From the NCBI RefSeq assembly GCF_050920415.1, contig NZ_CP169309.1: a stretch of DNA of 64,000 nt; one strand, written 5' to 3'. This stretch comes from Escherichia coli (GTDB lineage Bacteria; Pseudomonadota; Gammaproteobacteria; Enterobacterales; Enterobacteriaceae). Under the pieces are notes generated by a model that saw only the letters and a list, made by a program, of their open reading frames with translations, made no database searches and was not told where the DNA came from. This document shows, one piece after another, positions 1 through 12,348 of the stretch. How positions within the stretch are numbered: position 1 is the first letter of the stretch; every line of letters begins with the position of its first letter. The position numbers were made by a program, and so were the translations under genes.

Positions 1-17
1 ACGGATCTGGAGGTAAC

Positions 18-1067
18 GTGCGGGTATTACTTCGACCTGTACCGGTACCGGAACTCGGGGTGGTTATCGTTAAGCCAGGCCGTGAATCAATGTCGGTATT
101 CCATAACGACAGAGTACTGGTGGAGCCGGAACCAAAAAGCATGCGCGGTCTGCCGTCCGGAGTCGTCCCTACCGTTCGCCAGCCGCTGGCGGAGGATAAA
201 TCATTACTGCCGTTTTTCAGTAACAAACGAGTGATTCGTGCTGCTGGCGGCGCTGGTGCACTGTCTGACTGGTTACTGCGCCATGTCAAATCCTGCCAGT
301 GGCCTCATGGTGATTACCACCATAGTGAAACCGTTATTCACCGTTACGGTACCGGCGCGATGGTATTGTGCTGGCACTGCGACAACCAGCTGCGCGACCA
401 GACATCGGAATCACTCGAGCAACTTGCTCAACAAAATCTGACAGCCTGGATGCTTGAGGTTATACGTCACGCAATGAATGGCACGCAGGAGCGGGAATTA
501 TCGCTGGCTGAATTATCCTGGTGGGCGGTTTGCAATCAGGTGGTGGATGCTCTACCTGAGGCAGTATCACGTCGTTCGTTGGGATTACCGGTGGAAAAAA
601 TCCTCTCTGTGTATCGCGAGAGCGACATCGTACCGGGAGAACAGACAGCCACCAGCATACTGAAGCAGCGCACAAAAAATATTGCGCTACCGCCTCACGT
701 CCACCAGCAACAAAACTCACCACAGGAAAAGGCGGTGGTAAGCATCGCCGTTGATCCTGAGTCCCCGGAATCTTTCATGAAGCGACCTAAACGTCGCCGT
801 TGGGTAAATGAGAAATACACACGCTGGGTAAAGACACAGTCGTGTGCGTGCTGTGGTAAGCCAGCTGACGATCCCCATCACCTGATAGGTCATGGTCAGG
901 GCGGAATGGGAACAAAGGCCCACGATATTTTCACGTTACCGTTGTGTCGTAAACATCATAACGAGCTTCATGCAGAACCGTTGGCGTTCGAAGAAAAGCA
1001 TGGTTCTCAGGTTGATTTAATTTTTCGTTTTCTTGATCACGCCTTTGCAACCGGCGTGCTCGGATAA
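18..1067 (+). CDS. Prophage nin-region protein with C-terminal Cys/His-rich HNH-like motif (CxxC...HHL..H....C..HH...H); resembles E. coli prophage YdfU/DUF-type proteins; 5' end may lie outside window
   Basis: 349-aa ORF directly upstream of rusA and the Q-like gene; zinc-finger/HNH-like motif visible in translation; no stop upstream of position 18. Confidence 0.5.
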   Translation: MRVLLRPVPVPELGVVIVKPGRESMSVFHNDRVLVEPEPKSMRGLPSGVVPTVRQPLAEDKSLLPFFSNKRVIRAAGGAGALSDWLLRHVKSCQWPHGDYHHSETVIHRYGTGAMVLCWHCDNQLRDQTSESLEQLAQQNLTAWMLEVIRHAMNGTQERELSLAELSWWAVCNQVVDALPEAVSRRSLGLPVEKILSVYRESDIVPGEQTATSILKQRTKNIALPPHVHQQQNSPQEKAVVSIAVDPESPESFMKRPKRRRWVNEKYTRWVKTQSCACCGKPADDPHHLIGHGQGGMGTKAHDIFTLPLCRKHHNELHAEPLAFEEKHGSQVDLIFRFLDHAFATGVLG

Positions 1068-1076
1068 AAGAGGTTA

Positions 1077-1439
1077 TTGATGGGGATAGAATTTGTTTTG
1101 CCTTACCCGCCGACGGTAAATACCTACTGGCGTCGTCGTGGCAGCACATATTTTGTATCAAAAGCAGGGGAGCGTTATCGCCGGGATGTGGCGCTTATTG
1201 TTCGCCAGCAGCGGCTGAAATTAAATCTGTCCGGAAGGCTGGCAATAAAAATTATTGCAGAGCCACCGGATAAGCGCCGTCGTGACCTGGACAATATTCT
1301 GAAAGCACCACTGGATGCACTGACACATGCGGGACTGCTTATCGACGACGAGCAGTTTGATGAAGTTAATATTATGCGCGGTCAGGTTGTTCCCGGTGGT
1401 CGGCTGGGGATAAAAATCACAGAACTGGAGTGCGCATGA
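1077..1439 (+). CDS. rusA: RusA crossover junction endodeoxyribonuclease (Holliday junction resolvase)
   Basis: 120-aa translation recognisably matches the RusA family; typical nin-region position upstream of Q. Confidence 0.9.
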   Translation: MMGIEFVLPYPPTVNTYWRRRGSTYFVSKAGERYRRDVALIVRQQRLKLNLSGRLAIKIIAEPPDKRRRDLDNILKAPLDALTHAGLLIDDEQFDEVNIMRGQVVPGGRLGIKITELECA

Positions 1440-2101
1440 ATAACCAGTATTTACAGTTTGTGCGTGAGCAGCTCACGATCGCCACCGCTGATTTGAGTGG
1501 AGCAACAAAAGGTCAGCTTGAAGCCTGGCAGGAGAATGCCATGTTCAATACAGGGCGTTACAGACGTAAAAAAATCCGGTACCGCGATAAGGTCACTGGA
1601 AAAATAGTAACGCTGGATAATCCACCGATCCCGGGAAAGCAATCGCTGGCGAAAGGTTCATCAATTGCCCTGGTCAGTCCGGTTGAGTTTTCGACATCAT
1701 CATGGCGACGCGCCGTTCTGTCTCTTGAAGAACATCATAAAGCCTGGCTGCTGTGGTGTTACAGCGGTAGCATTTGCTGGGAGCATCAGATCGCGATAAC
1801 GCAGTGGGCGTGGATTGAATTTAATGCTCAATCCGGTACCAGAAAAATTGCAGGAAAAACTCTGGTGCGCCTGAAGACGTTGAGCTGGTTGGCGGCGCAG
1901 GCGGTAAAAGCTGAGCTTTTTGGTGGGGAAGGTTACGAATACCAGGAACTGGCGTTACTGGTGGGAGTAACAACCAAAAACTGGTCCAAGACATTTACTG
2001 GTCACTGGGTTGCAATGAAACACATTTTTCATCGGCTGGATAGTGAAGCTTTATTGTTAGTGGAGAGAACACGTTCAAAACAAAAGGCGGCATTTTCATA
2101 G
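1430..2101 (+). CDS. Putative late-gene antiterminator (Q-family by position)
   Basis: 223-aa ORF immediately upstream of a promoter plus short-transcript terminator (pR'/tR' arrangement) and the late region; assignment by synteny, sequence not confidently recognised. Confidence 0.45.
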   Translation: MRMNNQYLQFVREQLTIATADLSGATKGQLEAWQENAMFNTGRYRRKKIRYRDKVTGKIVTLDNPPIPGKQSLAKGSSIALVSPVEFSTSSWRRAVLSLEEHHKAWLLWCYSGSICWEHQIAITQWAWIEFNAQSGTRKIAGKTLVRLKTLSWLAAQAVKAELFGGEGYEYQELALLVGVTTKNWSKTFTGHWVAMKHIFHRLDSEALLLVERTRSKQKAAFS

Positions 2102-2108
2102 CAAAGTA

Positions 2109-2137
2109 TTGCAAAAGTAGATTAAAACGCATATATT
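2109..2137 (+). promoter_or_regulatory. pR'-like late promoter (TTGCAA -17 bp- TATATT) immediately after the Q-like stop
   Basis: -35 TTGCAA at 2109-2114, 17-bp spacer, -10 TATATT at 2132-2137. Confidence 0.4.
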
Positions 2138-2188
2138 TCGTGTAAATCTGATATTTTGCCGTTTTTATACGTGATGGCAAAGCTAGTA

Positions 2189-2214
2189 AAACCCGCGACC
2201 GAGCGGGTTTTTTA
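2189..2214 (+). terminator. tR'-like rho-independent terminator (aaacccgc-gaccga-gcgggttt + T-run)
   Basis: Perfect 8-bp stem, 6-nt loop, followed by T-run; about 50-70 nt downstream of the pR'-like promoter, as for lambda 6S RNA. Confidence 0.6.
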
Positions 2215-2287
2215 TCCCCCCAAAAAATGGCATAGACATTAAACGTGATGACGATTGTGCCAATACTTTCTCCATCAATGACGCCCC

Positions 2288-2317
2288 TTGACTGCATGGA
2301 ATCCAATTTGTTATGTA
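2288..2317 (+). promoter_or_regulatory. Candidate sigma70 promoter for the moron membrane-protein gene (TTGACT ... TGtTATGTA)
   Basis: Consensus-like -35 TTGACT at 2288-2293; extended -10-like TGnTATGTA about 18 bp downstream; lies after tR' and before the ATG at 2356. Confidence 0.3.
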
Positions 2318-2355
2318 ATATGTGTTGATATTTTTGAGTTGTTAATGGTGTTACT

Positions 2356-3069
2356 ATGAATGACAGTGCTCTGCTCAGAAACTCTTCACTTTTTGTTGCT
2401 TATATGGGCTGTCTAGGATGGGGAAGCGCTTATTTCTATGGATGGGGTACTTCATTTTACTATGGCTTTCCATGGTGGGTTGTCGGGGCTGGTGTCGATG
2501 ATGTTGCACGAAGTTTGTTTTATGCTGTGACAGTTATCGTTATATTCCTTATTGGATGGGGAGTTGGTATTGTTTTCTTTTTGGGCATAAAACAAAAGCG
2601 CAATATACAAAATTTGAGTTTTATCCGGCTTTTTCTCGCGATATTGCTGCTTTTTATTCCACCTGTTCTGGAGTTTTCGGTAATTCATCAGCATGTTGAG
2701 CCAGATGTACTGATTTTCTGCATTCTTGCTGCCTTTACAATCACGCTTTTTGTCAGGTCTGGAAGAAGACTTGTTTCAGTCAAATGTTTTTCGGAAATGT
2801 CTTTTATTCGCCATCACCGAATTGAGTTCATGATGGCTGGGTTTATGATTTATTTCTGGGCATTCTCTCTTATTGCCGGTTGGTACAAACCACAGTTTAA
2901 GAGGGAATATCAGGCGATCCACTATGAGAATGTATGGTATTACATTATTGCGCGTTATGATGATCGTCTGGTGTTATCGAAATCATACAGGAGTGGGGGT
3001 AAGAAATTCGTTATATTTAATAGCGGAAATATTAATGATTTTGAAATTAATACTATCAGAGTGCGTTAA
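2356..3069 (+). CDS. Uncharacterised integral membrane protein (about 4 predicted TM helices, Trp/Tyr/Gly-rich N-terminus, about 60-aa soluble C-terminal tail); moron
   Basis: 237-aa ORF, AT-rich codon usage unlike flanking phage genes, hydrophobic segments visible in translation; no family recognised. Confidence 0.7.
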   Translation: MNDSALLRNSSLFVAYMGCLGWGSAYFYGWGTSFYYGFPWWVVGAGVDDVARSLFYAVTVIVIFLIGWGVGIVFFLGIKQKRNIQNLSFIRLFLAILLLFIPPVLEFSVIHQHVEPDVLIFCILAAFTITLFVRSGRRLVSVKCFSEMSFIRHHRIEFMMAGFMIYFWAFSLIAGWYKPQFKREYQAIHYENVWYYIIARYDDRLVLSKSYRSGGKKFVIFNSGNINDFEINTIRVR

Positions 3070-3243
3070 AATTTCTTGAGTAATGAAGATTTTTACTGCC
3101 CGGCATTGAGCGGTTTTTTTATGCCAGAAAAATGGTGTGGTACATAAAATGTGCTGGTGGTTATTAATACCGGTCTTTCAGCTTGCTGGCTTTTTCGACA
3201 AGAGTTATTGGTATGTCACGTTAACCAATAAAGAGAAAAAGAC

Positions 3244-3441
3244 ATGCTAAAACAGCAGGATATGACCGAAACAGCCAGAGTGGTGTTTAATGAATTAAGC
3301 GTCACTGAACCGGCAACAGTTGGGGAAATTGCGCAGAATACTTACCTTTCACGCGAACGCTGCCAGTTAATACTGACCCAGCTTGTGATGGCGGGTCTGG
3401 CAGATTATCAGTTCGGTTGTTACAGACGCCTTCCGCAGTGA
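3244..3441 (+). CDS. Small (65 aa) putative winged-helix/HTH DNA-binding protein
   Basis: Helix-turn-helix-like segment (ATVGEIAQNTYLSRERCQLILTQLVMAGLA); own rho-independent terminator overlapping the stop. Confidence 0.45.
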   Translation: MLKQQDMTETARVVFNELSVTEPATVGEIAQNTYLSRERCQLILTQLVMAGLADYQFGCYRRLPQ

Positions 3442-3452
3442 AGGCTTTTTAC
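3428..3452 (+). terminator. Rho-independent terminator (gccttc-cgcagt-gaaggc + TTTTT)
   Basis: 6-bp perfect stem plus T-run overlapping the stop of the 65-aa ORF. Confidence 0.5.
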
Positions 3453-3591
3453 TTTGTGGTAATGGGCGGCTGGTGGGTGTTAGCGGCACCTGCCAGCCAT
3501 CTGCTCATGTGTTGAGGTCACAAGCAAACCTCAGGCCCATCTGCTTTGCGCAAAAGCGGTATGAGCCTATCAGAGAAGTGCTTATTGATCT

Positions 3592-4677
3592 ATGGCTAAT
3601 ACTGTAAAAATATCCAGTTGTGAGTTAATCAACACTGATTGCCTGGAATTTATCCAGACCTTATCGGAAAACTCTGTCGATCTTATAGTCACAGACCCGC
3701 CATATTTTAAAGTGAAGCCCGAGGGCTGGGATAACCAGTGGAAGGGCGACGATGATTACCTAAAATGGCTGGACCAGTGTCTGGCTCAGTTCTGGCGGGT
3801 ACTGAAGCCTGCCGGAAGTCTTTACCTGTTTTGTGGTCATCGCCTGGCATCTGATATCGAAATCATGATGCGTGAGCGCTTTAATGTGCTGAACCACATT
3901 ATCTGGGCGAAGCCGTCCGGACGCTGGAACGGGTGCAACAAAGAAAGCCTGCGGGCGTATTTCCCGGCAACAGAGCGCATTCTGTTTGCCGAACATTATC
4001 AGGGGCCATATCAGCCAAAAAATGCCGGCTATGCGGCAAAGGAGCGCGAGCTTAAACAACACGTCATGGCCCCGCTGATTTTTTACTTTCGTGATGCGCG
4101 TGAATCACTGGGAATAACGTCCAAACAGATAGCGGAAGCCACCGGAAAGAAAAACATGGTGTCGCACTGGTTTGGTACCAGTCAGTGGCAGTTACCGAAC
4201 GAAGCTGATTACAGAAAACTGCAGGCGCTGTTCGCGCGTGTTGCAGAAGAAAAACACCAGCGTGGGGAGCTGGCAACGCCACACCAACTGCTGGTCAGCA
4301 CATACAGTGAACTGAACCGGCAATATGCCAGTCTGCTTGAGGAATACAAATCTCTGCGGCGTTATTTTTCTGTATCGGCCGCCGTTCCTTATACGGATGT
4401 CTGGACGCATAAGCCCGTACAGTATTATCCGGGTAAGCATCCCTGCGAAAAACCGGCGGATATGTTGCGTCAGATAATTTCTGCCAGCAGTCGTCCGGGG
4501 GATGTGGTTGCGGATTTTTTTATGGGATCGGGGGCAACAATAAAAGCAGCAATGGGATTGGGGCGTCGCACGATTGGGGTTGAACTTGAGTCCGGGCGTT
4601 TTGAACAAACAGTTGGTGAAATATTGGTGCTGAACGATAAATTGCGAAATGCACAATTAGATAAGAACAGGAGCTAA
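3592..4677 (+). CDS. DNA methyltransferase, beta-class (N6-adenine or N4-cytosine); apparently orphan
   Basis: Motif IV DPPY near N-terminus (LIVTDPPYF), motif I FxGxG-like (DFFMGSGAT) near C-terminus; no restriction endonuclease ORF adjacent. Confidence 0.85.
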   Translation: MANTVKISSCELINTDCLEFIQTLSENSVDLIVTDPPYFKVKPEGWDNQWKGDDDYLKWLDQCLAQFWRVLKPAGSLYLFCGHRLASDIEIMMRERFNVLNHIIWAKPSGRWNGCNKESLRAYFPATERILFAEHYQGPYQPKNAGYAAKERELKQHVMAPLIFYFRDARESLGITSKQIAEATGKKNMVSHWFGTSQWQLPNEADYRKLQALFARVAEEKHQRGELATPHQLLVSTYSELNRQYASLLEEYKSLRRYFSVSAAVPYTDVWTHKPVQYYPGKHPCEKPADMLRQIISASSRPGDVVADFFMGSGATIKAAMGLGRRTIGVELESGRFEQTVGEILVLNDKLRNAQLDKNRS

Positions 4678-5197
4678 TCCTCGATTAATATCTAAGCCAA
4701 GCAGGATGCTTGGAAGTTCTGATATATTCTTATCGTTTTTCGGTATTTAAAACTGATTTTCGCTGGTTGCGAAAGCACGTGGTCGGGCACTGCGTTCACA
4801 CATGCAGGAGGGTGTGAAGTCAGCTTTTTTTCTGTGTATTCAGATGGCGTTCTGATTCTATAACGAGTTACGTGGACATCAGGGATGGAGAGAATAGGAA
4901 CGCCATCTTAATACATTTTCCCCGTTTATTTGATATATCTTCCGGATAAGGGATTAGGTCTGGTTTTTTATGTCATTCAATAACGCTCTTCTATACTGTA
5001 TACAATACTTTATCCTGGCAGTGTGTTTAAAACCTGAACTTATCCTTTGTTTCGTTTATAGACAGAAGGGTTAATATCGACTTATCATCAGCAGGATGGC
5101 AACAGATGTGTAAGCAGCTGGTCACCAGTTATACTTCAGTGGTACTTCTGAGTGCTTCTCTCCGTGAAATGATTATCATCCAGATGACAGGAGTAGA

Positions 5198-5476
5198 GTG
5201 AATATTGATGATATTTCCAGGTGCTCCAGCTTGTTGCAGCGTATTGAGGATGTTAATGCTGAACGAGCCAGGGCCTTTAGTCGTTTGACAGTTATATTTT
5301 CTACCCCTGATCGCCTTTCAGGAAAGAACATTGTTTTATTAAACAGTGATGCCATCCATAAGGTTTTTGAAGAGTTCATGGCTGCTAATTCAGAATTGCT
5401 GGCTCTTGTTGAGGAATACAACGAGATAGCCAGCCGTGTCGGTATGGATGAATTCAACGTCATACTTCGTGGATAA
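5198..5476 (+). CDS. Hypothetical protein (92 aa), GTG start with AGGAG RBS
   Basis: ORF preceded by AGGAG at 5187-5191 and followed by a strong terminator. Confidence 0.45.
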   Translation: MNIDDISRCSSLLQRIEDVNAERARAFSRLTVIFSTPDRLSGKNIVLLNSDAIHKVFEEFMAANSELLALVEEYNEIASRVGMDEFNVILRG

Positions 5477-5499
5477 AAACATGCTTCATATTTTCTGTT

Positions 5500-5524
5500 A
5501 GCTCGCTACGGCGAGCTTTTTTTG
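5500..5524 (+). terminator. Rho-independent terminator (agctcgc-tacg-gcgagct + T-run)
   Basis: 7-bp perfect stem, tetraloop, T-run of 8. Confidence 0.65.
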
Positions 5525-5657
5525 TATCTGAGCCACACCTGGCGCACATCAAAAACACAGAGCCTTTCAGGAGGTGCTTACGGGATTGTCAGTGTGACTT
5601 TCACTGTGGGCTGGTAACCATCTGGCGCAGGCTCGTCTACGCAAAGGAAAAGTCACG

Positions 5658-6083
5658 ATGTTAGGTATTTTCAAAAAGAAAACCCGCAAGGCCATCACAG
5701 AAGTGAAGAAGATGGAGAACCGTGATGCGGTGGAGGCGACCGTCTGGGGCGCATATTCCATTGCATATGCCGACGGCACCTGCGATGCGAAAGAAATCGC
5801 AGTACTGGAGAAAACTATTGCTGCGCTTCCTGCTTTTGCACCGTTCTCTGGTGAGATTGCCCAGATGAGCGCCAATATCCGCGCCCGTTATGAAGCGTCA
5901 CCGCGTAGTGCGAATGCGCATGCATTGCGTGAGCTGGCTGATGTGGCGGGGACAACTGAGGCGGTTGACGTGCTTTGCCTCTGTCTGGATATCGCTGATC
6001 AGGATGGCATTGGTCCGGATGAAGAAGCGCAGCTCAAGAAAATTGCACAGGCGCTTCAGTTACCACTGGAGCAGTATCTGTGA
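5658..6083 (+). CDS. TerB-like (tellurite-resistance TerB / DjlA N-terminal domain family) protein
   Basis: 141-aa helical protein whose acidic C-terminal motif (LCLCLDIADQDGIGPDEEAQLKKIAQAL) is typical of TerB-domain proteins. Confidence 0.55.
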   Translation: MLGIFKKKTRKAITEVKKMENRDAVEATVWGAYSIAYADGTCDAKEIAVLEKTIAALPAFAPFSGEIAQMSANIRARYEASPRSANAHALRELADVAGTTEAVDVLCLCLDIADQDGIGPDEEAQLKKIAQALQLPLEQYL

Positions 6084-6232
6084 AAAGTGCGGGCCTTGTG
6101 CTGGCTGCCATCCTGTTGTTTCTGGTAGTGGCAGTGGATTTCACTGGATGGCTGATGTCGGTACTGGCTGATGGTGTGCTGGTGGCGATGGTAACGGTCT
6201 TACTCTGGCCTTTACTTCGCAAATCTGAATAA
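6080..6232 (+). CDS. Possible small hydrophobic membrane protein (about 50 aa, GTG start overlapping the TerB-like stop)
   Basis: Unannotated frame reading VKSAGLVLAAILLFLVVAVDFTGWLMSVLADGVLVAMVTVLLWPLLRKSE; two hydrophobic stretches; start codon uncertain. Confidence 0.3.
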   Translation: MKSAGLVLAAILLFLVVAVDFTGWLMSVLADGVLVAMVTVLLWPLLRKSE

Positions 6233-6317
6233 ACAGCCTACAAAAGGTATCTGCGGGTACCTTTGATAAAGTTTTTTAGGGCCGCTGATGGTCCTTTTTA
6301 TTTACAGGAGAATAAAT

Positions 6318-6710
6318 ATGTCTGAACCCTTATCCGGTTCCGGCACTGCTGTGGCGCTCGGCGGGGCGACGGTATTCGGGCTGTTTACCGGGACGGATTT
6401 CGGGATTGTATTTGGTGCGTTCGCTGGTGCGTTATTTGTGGCAACAATGCCGCAGACACTTTCAGCCTGGCGTGTGGCTGCACATTTTCTGGTGTCCTTT
6501 ATTGTTGGTGTGCTTGGGGCCCGTGGTGTGGCCGGTTACATGGCGGAACGTATTGGGTTTAACAGTGCTTCCGTTGATGCGTTGTGTGCGGTCCTGGTGT
6601 CGGTGCTCTCAGTAAAAGTCCTGTCATTCATCCACCAGCAGGAGATTACATCACTGGTATCCGGTCTGTTCTCCCGTCAGCGTGGAGGAGGTGGTGGTAA
6701 TGACAAATAA
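6318..6710 (+). CDS. Putative holin (multi-TM membrane protein, Gly-rich C-terminus)
   Basis: ATG at 6318 preceded by AGGAG; about 3 hydrophobic helices; lies upstream of the endolysin. Confidence 0.55.
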   Translation: MSEPLSGSGTAVALGGATVFGLFTGTDFGIVFGAFAGALFVATMPQTLSAWRVAAHFLVSFIVGVLGARGVAGYMAERIGFNSASVDALCAVLVSVLSVKVLSFIHQQEITSLVSGLFSRQRGGGGGNDK

Positions 6711-6978
6711 TCTTCCAGGATTACTGAATGCGGCGTTATGTACGGTTATCGTACTGACGCTTTTTTTCTACCGCAGAAAAGAGTCCCGACACAAACCGCT
6801 GATATCGTGGTGCGCCTGGTGTCTGATGCTGTTGTATGCGATAACGCCGTTAAGTTATCTCTGTGGTCATCCGTTGCCGGCAGACTGGCTGGTAGTGATG
6901 CTGAACCTGGTGTTTGGTGTCATGGTAGTGCGTGCGCGCGGTAATGTTTCAAAAATTTTTGCTTTCCTGAGTGGCTGA
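6700..6978 (+). CDS. Putative holin/antiholin-like small membrane protein
   Basis: 92-aa hydrophobic protein (start MTNNLPGLL) overlapping the preceding gene's end and the endolysin start. Confidence 0.5.
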   Translation: MTNNLPGLLNAALCTVIVLTLFFYRRKESRHKPLISWCAWCLMLLYAITPLSYLCGHPLPADWLVVMLNLVFGVMVVRARGNVSKIFAFLSG

Positions 6979-7525
6979 TATGAAATCGAGAGATGAAATT
7001 TTTGATGAAATCCTCGGAAAAGAGGGGGGGTATGTCAGTCATCCTGACGATACAGGCGGAGCGACGAAGTGGGGAATTACTGAAAAAGTGGCGCGCGCGC
7101 ATGGTTACCGTGGTGATATGCGTGATTTGAGCCGCGGGCAGGCTCTGGAAATCCTTGAGGCAGACTATTGGTATGGACCTCGTTTTGACCAGGTGGCAAA
7201 CCTGTCTCCTGATATTGCTGCAGAACTGTGTGATACCGGGGTAAACATGGGGCCGTCGGTAGCCACAAAAATGCTTCAGCGCTGGCTGAATGTGTTTAAT
7301 CAGAAGGGAATGCTGTATCCGGACATAGTTACAGACGGGGGGATCGGGCCGCGAACCATTAATGCGTTACGTTCTTATCTGAAAAATCGCGGCAGGGATG
7401 GCGAACTGGTACTGGTGAAAGCCCTGAACTGTACGCAGGGTGAGCGTTATCTGGCGCTGGCAGAGAAACGCGAGGCTAACGAGTCGTTTGTCTATGGCTG
7501 GATGAAAGAGCGCGTTGGTTTATAA
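6971..7525 (+). CDS. Endolysin, glycoside hydrolase family 108 with C-terminal peptidoglycan-binding domain
   Basis: N-terminal EILGKEGGYVSHPDDTGGATKWGI motif characteristic of GH108 lysozymes. Confidence 0.85.
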   Translation: MADMKSRDEIFDEILGKEGGYVSHPDDTGGATKWGITEKVARAHGYRGDMRDLSRGQALEILEADYWYGPRFDQVANLSPDIAAELCDTGVNMGPSVATKMLQRWLNVFNQKGMLYPDIVTDGGIGPRTINALRSYLKNRGRDGELVLVKALNCTQGERYLALAEKREANESFVYGWMKERVGL

Positions 7526-7533
7526 ACTCATCG

Positions 7534-7558
7534 AAAAGGTCACTTCGGTGGCTTTTTT
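7534..7558 (+). terminator. Rho-independent terminator with UUCG tetraloop (aaaaggtcac-ttcg-gtggc + T-run)
   Basis: Stem with G-U wobble pairs, UUCG loop, T-run of 6, immediately after the endolysin stop. Confidence 0.5.
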
Positions 7559-7726
7559 ATTGTTCAAAAAACGAAAGAACGGAGGTACGTATGTACGCAC
7601 TGAAAAAGATTACGGTAACTGAAGATGGTCGTCAGTAGACTGGCCCCCTGAATCTCCAGACAACCAGTATCACTTAAATAAGTGATAGTCTTAATACTAG
7701 TTTTTAGACTAGTCATTGGAGAACAG

Positions 7727-8092
7727 ATGATTGATGTCTTAGGGCCGGAGAAACGCAGACGGCGTACCACACAGGAAAAGATCGCAATTGTTCAGCAGAG
7801 CTTTGAACCGGGGATGACGGTCTCCCTCGTTGCCCGGCAACATGGTGTAGCAGCCAGCCAGTTATTTCTCTGGCGTAAGCAATACCAGGAAGGAAGTCTT
7901 ACTGCTGTCGCCGCCGGAGAACAGGTTGTTCCTGCCTCTGAACTTGCTGCCGCCATGAAGCAGATTAAAGAACTCCAGCGCCTGCTCGGCAAGAAAACGA
8001 TGGAAAATGAACTCCTCAAAGAAGCCGTTGAATATGGACGGGCAAAAAAGTGGATAGCGCACGCGCCCTTATTGCCCGGGGATGGGGAGTAA
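7727..8092 (+). CDS. insC: IS2 transposase OrfA (InsC)
   Basis: Translation [41 protein letters not shown]... matches IS2 InsC. Confidence 0.9.
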
Positions 8093-8955
8093 GCTTAGTC
8101 AGCCGTTGTCTCCGGGTGTCGCGTGCGCAGTTGCACGTCATTCTCAGACGAACCGATGACTGGATGGATGGCCGCCGCAGTCGTCACACTGATGATACGG
8201 ATGTGCTTCTCCGTATACACCATGTTATCGGAGAGCTGCCCACGTATGGTTATCGTCGGGTATGGGCGCTGCTTCGCAGACAGGCAGAACTTGATGGTAT
8301 GCCTGCAATCAATGCCAAACGTGTTTACCGGATCATGCGCCAGAATGCGCTGTTGCTTGAGCGAAAACCTGCTGTACCGCCATCGAAACGGGCACATACA
8401 GGCAGAGTGGCCGTGAAAGAAAGCAATCAGCGATGGTGCTCTGACGGGTTCGAGTTCTGCTGTGATAACGGAGAGAGACTGCGTGTCACGTTCGCGCTGG
8501 ACTGCTGTGATCGTGAGGCACTGCACTGGGCGGTGACTACTGGCGGCTTCAACAGTGAAACAGTACAGGACGTCATGCTGGGAGCGGTGGAACGCCGCTT
8601 CGGCAACGATCTTCCGTCGTCTCCAGTGGAGTGGCTGACGGATAATGGTTCATGCTACCGGGCTAATGAAACACGCCAGTTCGCCCGGATGTTGGGACTT
8701 GAACCGAAGAACACGGCGGTGCGGAGTCCGGAGAGTAACGGAATAGCAGAGAGCTTCGTGAAAACGATAAAGCGTGACTACATCAGTATCATGCCCAAAC
8801 CAGACGGGTTAACGGCAGCAAAGAACCTTGCAGAGGCGTTCGAGCATTATAACGAATGGCATCCGCATAGTGCGCTGGGTTATCGCTCGCCACGGGAATA
8901 TCTGCGGCAGCGGGCTTGTAATGGGTTAAGTGATAACAGATGTCTGGAAATATAG
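8050..8955 (+). CDS. insD: IS2 transposase OrfB (InsD), DDE integrase-type
   Basis: 301-aa translation matches IS2 InsD; overlaps insC in the -1 frame as in IS2. Confidence 0.9.
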
Positions 8956-9236
8956 GGGCAAATCCAGTCAGGTTGAGGAAGTGCATGTCCTGGGGGGATA
9001 TGTATCGTATGGAGTTTTACCCGCGTAATACCCATCTGGCAGCAAAAATTGAGTATTGCCGGAACGGGAATATTTCATGTTTGCAGGTAGAGAAAACGGA
9101 TGAGGCTTATATCACTACGCTGAACGGCGATACGATGTCAGCGCCAATGATATAAGACAGTAATTCACCATTTGGATTGTCCGCTCCACCCAACATGTTG
9201 TTTCCTTAAGGTTCCTACACCACAAAGGGAACACTC

Positions 9237-11202
<1,966 letters not shown>

Positions 11203-11419
11203 TGACCAATAGCGGACATTAAAAATGGCGAAAAACGGCCAATAATCTTGGCGTTGACAACGATGCGTTGCATCTGTCGCGGCGACAGTAAAGCCCGGAA
11301 TGAAATGGCCAGATGTCGTACTCATACCAGTGAATAACAAGTAAAACCCCGGCGGCTGAAACAACCAAGGGGTTAACAGTGTAAATAAAACTGCCCATAT
11401 TGATGGGCAGCGCATGTAA

Positions 11420-11713
11420 TTATTGTGAGCAATAGACCCGAGCTTCAAGCGGAGTATAAATGCCTAAAGTAATAAAACCGAGCAATCCATTTACGAATGT
11501 TTGCTGGGTTTCAGTTTTAACAACTTTATCTGCGCCACCACAAATTTTGGCTGCATCGACAGTTTTCTTCTGACCAATTCCTGAAACGAAGAAATGATGA
11601 GTGATGGTTTCCTTCGGTGTTACTGTTGTAGGTTTGTTTTCAACTGTAAACGTCTGTTGAGCACATCCAGAGATAAGCAGCGCCAGTGTGAAAGTGAGTA
11701 GCGTTTTTTTCAT
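11420..11713 (-). CDS. bor: Bor lipoprotein (lambda Bor/Iss family)
   Basis: 97-aa translation with lipobox LLISGC, recognisably matching lambda Bor; minus strand between lysis region and cos as in lambda. Confidence 0.9.
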   Translation of the reverse strand: MKKTLLTFTLALLISGCAQQTFTVENKPTTVTPKETITHHFFVSGIGQKKTVDAAKICGGADKVVKTETQQTFVNGLLGFITLGIYTPLEARVYCSQ

Positions 11714-11937
11714 CGTGTGATTCCCGTTGTGTTTTTAAGTTTGGTGCATCGTATTTGTGGAAATTTAAACAAAACCTAAACAATGAGTTGAAATCTCATA
11801 TTGTTAATGTTTATTAAAGTATGCCAGATGTGCTGTATCTTTACTGTATACCCAGATTAACTATGGCCACAGCACCGACTGGTAACTCCTGTGTGGGAGT
11901 GCCGGCTACTGAGGCGGATCAAACCGGACGTTATGGT

Positions 11938-12348
11938 TTAGCGTGGAAAAATTTGAGTCGTGTTCTGGATGCTTTCGGTAAACAATAATGAGTTGTCAAA
12001 GGTATAGTAATATCTTTTGTGTTCGTGGATATTTGTAACCCATCGGAAAACTCCAGCTTTAGCCAGATTTACCCTGTATTCATGAAATGTGATTTCTCTT
12101 GATTTCAACTTATGAAGGTAAGTTTCTATAAGTCGCGTGTCTCTGCAAAAGCTAACATGAATAACATCATGGAAACCTTTTATTAACACCGTGTTATCGC
12201 TCTCAAATACAATGTGAATATTACCTGTGGCTAAATAGTAAATGTAATGTGAGACATTGTGGCGTTTTAGTTCAGAGTAAAACCGGTCACAGTTTAAATC
12301 TTTCCGCACTTGATCAAATATTTCTTTAAAAATGGCAACCTGAGCCAT
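11938..12348 (-). CDS. Uncharacterised protein (136 aa), AT-rich moron
   Basis: Minus-strand ORF in the bor-cos interval; AT-rich codon usage; no family recognised. Confidence 0.5.

Follow-up and report, generated by a model that had tools for sequence, protein, structure and literature searches.

We analysed a 64,000-nucleotide (nt) stretch of Escherichia coli DNA (contig NZ_CP169309.1 of assembly GCF_050920415.1; the whole stretch is called the window) and focused on a locus where a gene for a TerB-domain protein lies shortly upstream of lysis genes. Two overlapping genes make up the core of this locus, both on the plus strand. The first, tciA (5658..6083, ATG start), encodes a predicted cytoplasmic TerB-domain protein of 141 amino acids (aa). 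The second, tciB (6080..6232, GTG start), encodes a 50-aa protein of the DUF3927 family with two hydrophobic helices. The start of tciB and the stop of tciA share four nucleotides (GTGA), and a GGAG motif lies 8 nt upstream of the tciB GTG. Preceding tciA on the same strand is a conserved leader of ~85 nt (5572..5657) that carries an AAGGAA ribosome-binding site and forms the left edge of the unit. We are nearly certain that 5572-6240 is a tciA-tciB (tciAB) cassette of the phage P1 kind, and equally so of the architecture of the three open reading frames (ORFs) at this locus.

This finding is already known: RefSeq lists identical proteins with the same designations, and the description of the P1 genome included the pair. 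Over the region considered here the window is 100% identical to a prophage of E. coli P393-F10, in which the gene order runs from the Q antiterminator through two hypothetical genes, a DNA methyltransferase and a 92-aa gene to TerB, DUF3927, two holins and an endolysin. Within that identical prophage, RefSeq names the pair 'tellurite resistance TerB family protein' and 'DUF3927 family protein' (WP_000833498.1 for the latter), so the description of the small frame as unannotated, made in an earlier sequence-only reading of this DNA, was mistaken. What remains of value is a pointer to a very common phage gene pair, which on its own matters little.

TciA and TciB as a conserved pair

Window TciA is 87% identical to P1 TciA over the full length, both proteins being 141 aa long, and matches phrog_632 (E 2.5e-65). 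Used alone, the window sequence gives a weak match to the Pfam TerB model (PF05099; E 1.1e-3), and phmmer found no match to this single sequence among PDB sequences. Scanning 1.84 billion representative proteins yielded 166 TciA relatives, nearly all of them single-domain proteins of 140-150 aa. A family profile of 96 relatives matches the Klebsiella TerB structure 2JXU (E 1.2e-27, residues 6-142 against 12-149), and 89 of the 96 family members have Pfam TerB matches of their own. The AlphaFold2 (AF2) model of TciA contains six helices, with a predicted local distance difference test (pLDDT) value of 90.3 and a predicted template modelling score (pTM) of 0.83. Its best Foldseek match is the TerB-like structure 2h5n_A (probability 1.0, TM-score 0.52); the nuclear magnetic resonance entry 2JXU was not retrieved in the Foldseek search with this model. 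Two acidic ADGxxxxxE motifs, D39/G40/E46 and D116/G117/E122, are invariant or at least 90% conserved. Since family profile, fold and motifs all hold, the TerB assignment proposed in the sequence-only reading survives the test of its fold, and by homology the TerB domain spans the full length of TciA. Purifying selection on TciA is strong, with a pooled ratio of nonsynonymous to synonymous substitution rates (dN/dS) of 0.06. The conserved N-terminus, MFGxFxKK, is hydrophobic and then basic, which would fit the amphitropic behaviour reported for TerB, as cited in 10.1101/2022.05.11.491447.

The small frame downstream also proved sound. Its 50-aa product matches Pfam DUF3927 (E 1.2e-13) and phrog_1470, 'TciB-like' (E 8e-22), the latter being its sole PHROG match and a family of the moron category. 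Identity to P1 TciB is 48% over residues 20-50. Of 84 close loci, 82 retain the GTGA junction, and 50 aa is the length of most alleles. Substitution patterns are consistent with coding: dN/dS is 0.43 in the frame of tciB itself against 0.69 and 1.18 in the other two frames, and within the gene it is 0.28 for codons 2-35 and 0.53 for codons 36-50. The protein consists of two hydrophobic stretches with D-F-T-G-(R) between them and basic residues at both ends; D20, S27, D31 and P44 are conserved. Family matches, junction and frame-specific constraint together identify the GTG frame overlapping the TerB-gene stop, predicted from sequence as a hydrophobic ORF of about 50 aa, as a real gene, well beyond chance.

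The window allele of TciB carries Gly5 and Trp24 (codons 6092-6094 and 6149-6151). Arg5 is conserved in at least 90% of 25 aligned TciB homologues and Arg24 is present in most close alleles. Both changes are single-base substitutions, and each removes a positive charge beside a hydrophobic helix.

To follow the pair across phages, we applied a TciB hidden Markov model made from eight TciB sequences to 178 loci with this TciA type. In 173 of them TciA has a TciB-like ORF immediately behind it, in loci that come from at least six phage groups and include unannotated cases; most of the 178 belong to two closely related lambdoid lineages, so there are fewer independent events than the count implies. 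The spread across phage families is therefore the stronger evidence for pairing. Carriers include P1, P7, the lambdoid phage JLK-2012, the N4-like phages SP-058 and Pollock, the Erwinia jumbo phage ChrisDB, Pantoea phage LIET2 and Pseudomonas phage Nican01, and in nearly all phages with this TciA type the tciB start overlaps or abuts the tciA stop. Two uncalled or unannotated TciB homologues are a 60-aa ORF in Nican01 (L089 2935-3117) and one on a metagenomic contig (L177 3444-3605).

TciB is missing downstream of the TerB gene in Pseudomonas phage AF, Sinorhizobium phage phiM5, Vibrio phage BUCT194 and one metagenomic locus. BUCT194 is a virulent N4-like phage (L091 1-2926) whose TciA-like TerB adjoins a membrane protein of the TerC/Alx family (TIGR03718, E 4e-104), another TerB and a TerD; the phage thus carries a ter-like cluster that is nearly complete. 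We set aside a natural 196-aa TerB-DUF3927 fusion, P0174 from Logan, as Rosetta-stone evidence. Only one P1-type contig encodes it, through a 1-nt shift where the two genes meet, and a sequencing error or a rare mutation is the probable cause.

Boundaries, distribution and the 92-aa neighbour

The cassette has a sharp left edge. Homology to genomes without tciAB stops at ~5571, and across 53 distinct upstream sequences conservation begins ~85 nt before the tciA ATG. Searching with blastn, we found similar tciAB DNA in 1635 of 5426 complete E. coli genomes, at up to 8 places per genome and at 390 places on plasmids; enterohaemorrhagic E. coli strains reach 8 copies. All sampled blastn rows were annotated with a TerB family protein, a DUF3927 family protein or both. 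In 14 genomes a 1.8-kb stretch recurs in exactly the arrangement seen here.

What lies next to the pair depends on the lineage. Among window-lineage loci (TciA at least 94% identical) with enough downstream sequence, a phrog_198 holin follows within ~100 nt in 54 of 65; in the remainder iraM, DUF1883 or another holin comes first. A second lambdoid lineage, of the JLK-2012 type with 43% identical TciA, has the sialate esterase gene nanS-p first in 39 of 49 loci, and there the holin lies ~2.5 kb further on. Prophages of O157:H7 run from a Q-like region through tRNA-Ile and tRNA-Arg to TerB, DUF3927, esterase and holin, which is the layout of Shiga toxin (Stx) phages with tciAB instead of stx. 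In P1 and P7 the pair sits inside the early ban operon; in P1 this C1-controlled operon holds tciA, tciB and the 35-aa tciC, flanked by tRNA genes. The N4-like, jumbo and Pseudomonas phages have it in stretches of early or auxiliary genes, far from the lysis genes. Holin adjacency is thus a trait of one lineage, not of the module, and the link to lysis timing that the sequence-only reading had raised is therefore weak. Another of its suggestions, further cargo, describes the pair best, given the sharp edge, the alternative occupants and the stx-equivalent position in O157 prophages.

Several side observations concern these settings. No more than 1.5 kb upstream of tciAB there are tRNA genes in 47 of 79 and 71 of 80 lambdoid loci (L006-L085 and L093-L172), and tRNA neighbours also occur in P1, P7, an Erwinia jumbo phage and a Pseudomonas phage (L002, L088, L089, L181); the window has none. 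This neighbourhood recurs across unrelated phages and may reflect a shared accessory-gene zone only. E. coli strain 219 carries a decayed cassette (L187 3500-3616), with a truncated 38-aa DUF3927 gene after tRNA-Ile, tciA deleted and iraM following. A lead to the Pas small RNAs was rejected: PasA and PasC, which have TerB as a neighbour, lie between nanS-p and the holin, and the window has no nanS-p.

Upstream of the cassette is a 92-aa gene (5198..5476, plus strand, GTG start) without assigned function. Its product matches phrog_2873 (E 9e-47); no relatives turned up in Pfam, NCBIfam or PDB. A sigma-70 promoter-like site precedes it on the same strand (5059..5088, TAGACA-18-TATCAT, 10 of 12 consensus positions); this is a consensus match only, in a region where promoter-like sites are no more numerous than expected from shuffled sequence. 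An intrinsic terminator follows 24 nt past the stop (5500..5527, plus strand), formed by a hairpin at 5500-5517 with a 7-bp stem, five of its pairs GC, and a 4-nt loop, and then by a run of seven T. The strong terminator noticed in the sequence-only reading is thus borne out; the role it gave this gene as a partner of TerB is not. DNA from the methyltransferase stop through the 92-aa gene occurs in 50 of the 5426 complete E. coli genomes; tciAB follows in ~13 of them, and in ~37 the match stops at window position 5571. In the two such genomes that we examined, a minus-strand DUF1883 gene fills the tciAB slot before the holin (L004 5656-5925, L005 5657-5926). A few genomes carry both the DUF1883 gene and tciAB. 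Conversely, the 92-aa gene accompanies tciA in only 8 of 80 close loci, and phage mEp460 has a 61%-identical copy between Q and the lysis genes without tciAB.

Composition separates the two units as well: segment 4600-5500 has 36-44% G+C, against 52-55% for tciAB. With its 10/12 promoter-like match, strong terminator, low G+C and patchy distribution, the AT-rich 92-aa gene (dN/dS 0.26, from 4 alleles only) looks like a separate moron, unrelated to tciAB and outside its cassette. An operon of three genes, with the 92-aa protein acting alongside TciA and TciB, would draw on the shared strand and the spacing of 181 nt. It is set against the intervening terminator, the break in G+C, the ~37 genomes and mEp460 in which the 92-aa gene stands alone, and the 72 of 80 close loci and all other phage groups in which tciAB does without it. 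We give this arrangement almost no credence, and the distribution effectively refutes it.

Possible functions of the pair

By homology the module belongs to the P1 tciAB family, though it lacks tciC, and to the families of TerB and DUF3927; it is neither a ter operon nor a known defence system nor a holin. Its likeness to P1 tciABC lies in a TciA of identical length and 87% sequence identity, in a small DUF3927 ORF that starts at the tciA stop and in its standing as dispensable accessory cargo in a variable region. All three P1 genes were nonessential in a genome-wide CRISPR interference screen (PMC10695390), and a survey of P1-like plasmids describes the tciABC region as highly variable and its role as unclear (PMC9603915). 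The window differs in that it lacks the third small membrane ORF of P1 and P7, for which no ORF fits in the 85 nt after tciB, in that its TciB reaches no more than 48% identity to that of P1 over residues 20-50, and in that its pair lies in a predicted Q-dependent late region beside holins and not in an early operon with tRNA genes.

Among wider relatives, the TerB of terZABCDE operons (2JXU) shares with TciA a full-length domain, both acidic motifs, an all-helical fold and pairing with a membrane protein. Pairwise similarity between the two is too weak for phmmer, the carriers are plasmids or genomic islands for one and phages for the other, and the membrane partner is TerC in ter operons but a 50-aa hairpin unrelated to TerC here. 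TerC, TerD, TerZ, TerA and TerE are absent from the window, where the neighbours are the methyltransferase, the 92-aa gene, DUF3927, holins and endolysin. The Bunzi, Shango and Dionysus systems, for which membrane surveillance has been proposed, likewise combine a TerB-like protein with one or more transmembrane components; unlike them, tciAB has no helicase, ATPase or pore-forming toxin partner and is phage-encoded, in virulent phages too. Lambdoid late morons (stx, bor, lom, nanS-p, iraM) resemble tciAB in the Q-to-lysis slot, the sharp mosaic boundaries and the alternative occupants. The cassette has no recognisable promoter of its own, whereas its 92-aa neighbour, with promoter-like site, gene and terminator, would fit the classic moron layout.

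These comparisons suggest how the pair could work. tciAB would be a mobile accessory unit of two genes (a 'moron'), lodged in a lambdoid prophage between the late antiterminator Q and the genes for lysis, in what appears to be the cargo slot that holds stx in Stx phages. From the terminator at 5500-5527 up to tciA, leader included, a scan for consensus sigma-70 sites found nothing promoter-like; on this ground, and from lambda Q biology, the genes would probably be read mainly by Q-modified RNA polymerase after induction. Start-stop overlap and the known behaviour of overlapping genes point to joint production of TciA and TciB through translational coupling. TciB could then act as the membrane partner of an amphitropic TerB domain, the role of the unrelated TerC in ter operons, because TerB is reported to form a complex with the membrane protein TerC (PMC11003894, PMC12054061) and to associate with membranes, and because BUCT194 pairs its TerB with a TerC/Alx protein. 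Such a complex might protect or condition the inner membrane in lytic growth against superinfecting phages and pore-forming colicins. This biological effect is the weakest step of the mechanism. Operons of the ter type confer phage-inhibition and colicin-resistance phenotypes. TerB domains have also lately been found in validated, membrane-linked anti-phage systems, namely Bunzi, Shango and Dionysus (10.1101/2022.05.11.491447; 10.1101/2025.09.30.679545). The effect proposed for tciAB would echo both.

We put the probability of this explanation as a whole, identity and mechanism blended, at about 0.5. Membrane protection or exclusion as the mechanism is possible and is offered tentatively. An envelope or membrane role, one of the suggestions in the sequence-only reading, is plausible, by homology only; the timing of lysis that stood beside it is weakened by the co-occurrence data. 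A bolder reading, in which TciA-TciB would be a minimal phage TerB system at the inner membrane, serving superinfection or colicin exclusion or acting as a decoy against TerB-based immunity, strikes us as doubtful. If true, it would give a function to a pair carried by ~30% of complete E. coli genomes and by phages of the P1-like, lambdoid, N4-like and jumbo groups. For a pair this common, in the slot of the Shiga toxin genes, every function proposed here is putative.

Several points weigh against the proposed mechanism. We found no experiments on TciA or TciB function in the searchable literature, and the GenBank note to P1 states that the tci names were given 'by homology' only. None of the three proteins has a match at E <= 1 in PADLOC-DB v2, which includes Bunzi and Shango and is older than Dionysus. 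Virulent phages also carry the pair, so its function cannot lie purely in lysogenic conversion or in exclusion on behalf of the host, and the late-expression step leans on a scan restricted to consensus sigma-70 sites. Allele patterns argue against a tightly co-evolved interface between the two proteins: P7 and P1 differ in TciA (35% identical) and have nearly the same TciB (tciB compared between L002 2926-3090 and L181 1935-2099), and TciA and TciB alleles are freely shuffled. In the window lineage the 3' third to half of tciB (6185-6232 in the window) varies with the type of downstream holin region, and this, together with the TciB shared by P1 and P7, places recombination joints inside tciB. 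Lastly, an AF2 model of a TciA-(GGGGS)6-TciB fusion reached a pTM of 0.56, with TciB at pLDDT 50-75 folded as one long helix and no confident docking; made from a shallow 25-row paired alignment and without predicted aligned errors or contacts, it neither supports nor excludes a complex.

Other functions draw on the same observations. The pair might be a small cation-handling device, with TciB and a metal-binding TerB replacing or modulating host TerC/Alx and keeping the stressed infected cell productive. Conservation of the acidic motifs and of TciB D20 and D31, which would lie in or near the membrane, would suit such ion or metal homeostasis, as would the part of the TerC family in metal homeostasis with TerB as its reported partner (PMC12054061, PMC11003894), the TerC/Alx protein that takes the place of TciB in BUCT194, and the auxiliary genes among which virulent phages hold the pair. 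TciB, however, has no sequence similarity to TerC, metal binding by TciA is putative, and the TerC-for-TciB pattern comes from a single phage; we regard this role as unlikely. Modulation of holin triggering, for instance by stabilising the membrane potential or in the manner of an antiholin, is less probable again. In its favour stand the holin less than 100 nt downstream in those 54 window-lineage loci, a late transcript presumably common to pair and holin, the small two-helix form of TciB and the co-variation of its 3' half with the downstream holin type. A recombination joint inside tciB would itself yield that co-variation, however, and nanS-p intervenes in most loci of the second lineage, P1 and P7 have the pair in the early ban operon, the N4-like, jumbo and Pseudomonas phages have it at a distance from lysis genes, and TciB matches none of the PHROG lysis families.

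We consider it quite improbable that TciA is a counter-defence decoy, that is, a phage TerB homologue with a membrane anchor that disturbs TerB-based membrane-surveillance immunity of the host (ter, Bunzi, Shango, Dionysus). Validated defence systems do contain TerB domains, the pair occurs in virulent as well as temperate phages, and its dispensability in a laboratory host is typical of anti-defence genes. Against this, TciA has no PADLOC match to defence-type TerB models, no experimental hint points that way, and abundance in E. coli prophages suits host-beneficial cargo at least equally. A true tellurite-resistance determinant, as the annotation name and the TerB homology would have it, is hardly credible: for tellurite resistance, ter operons need TerC and TerD-family proteins (PMC12054061), neither of which is encoded here, and the P1 label goes back to homology only. 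The comparative results narrow the experiments worth doing, with TciB as the constant partner, the 92-aa gene outside the unit and the holin link confined to one lineage.

Flanking genes and insertions

Downstream, 85 nt separate the end of tciB from the first holin. A terminator-like hairpin with a T-run lies in this gap on the plus strand (6278..6305, from the consensus scan only); its hairpin, at 6278-6295, is weaker than that of the terminator at 5500-5517. A lysis cassette of the phiP27 type follows outside tciAB, all on the plus strand: a phrog_198 holin (6318..6710, E 2e-39), a second holin-family gene of phrog_217 (6700..6978, E 2e-35) and a GH108 endolysin (6971..7525).

A 520-bp AT-rich gap (4678-5197) separates the DNA methyltransferase from the 92-aa gene and contains no tRNA, Rfam match or long ORF; a search of window positions 1-12000 found no tRNA genes or Rfam families. 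Related prophages have tRNA or toxin-antitoxin-like genes at the position of this gap. Just past the endolysin lies a 1331-bp element of the IS3 family (IS2-like, 7636-8966), with orfA, orfB and a 5-bp target duplication. It is not present in the otherwise 99.5% identical prophage of NZ_CP076274 and occupies the expected site of the spanin genes. A second insertion relative to that prophage spans 2122 bp (9138-11259) and encodes IstA- and IstB-like proteins of the IS21 family.

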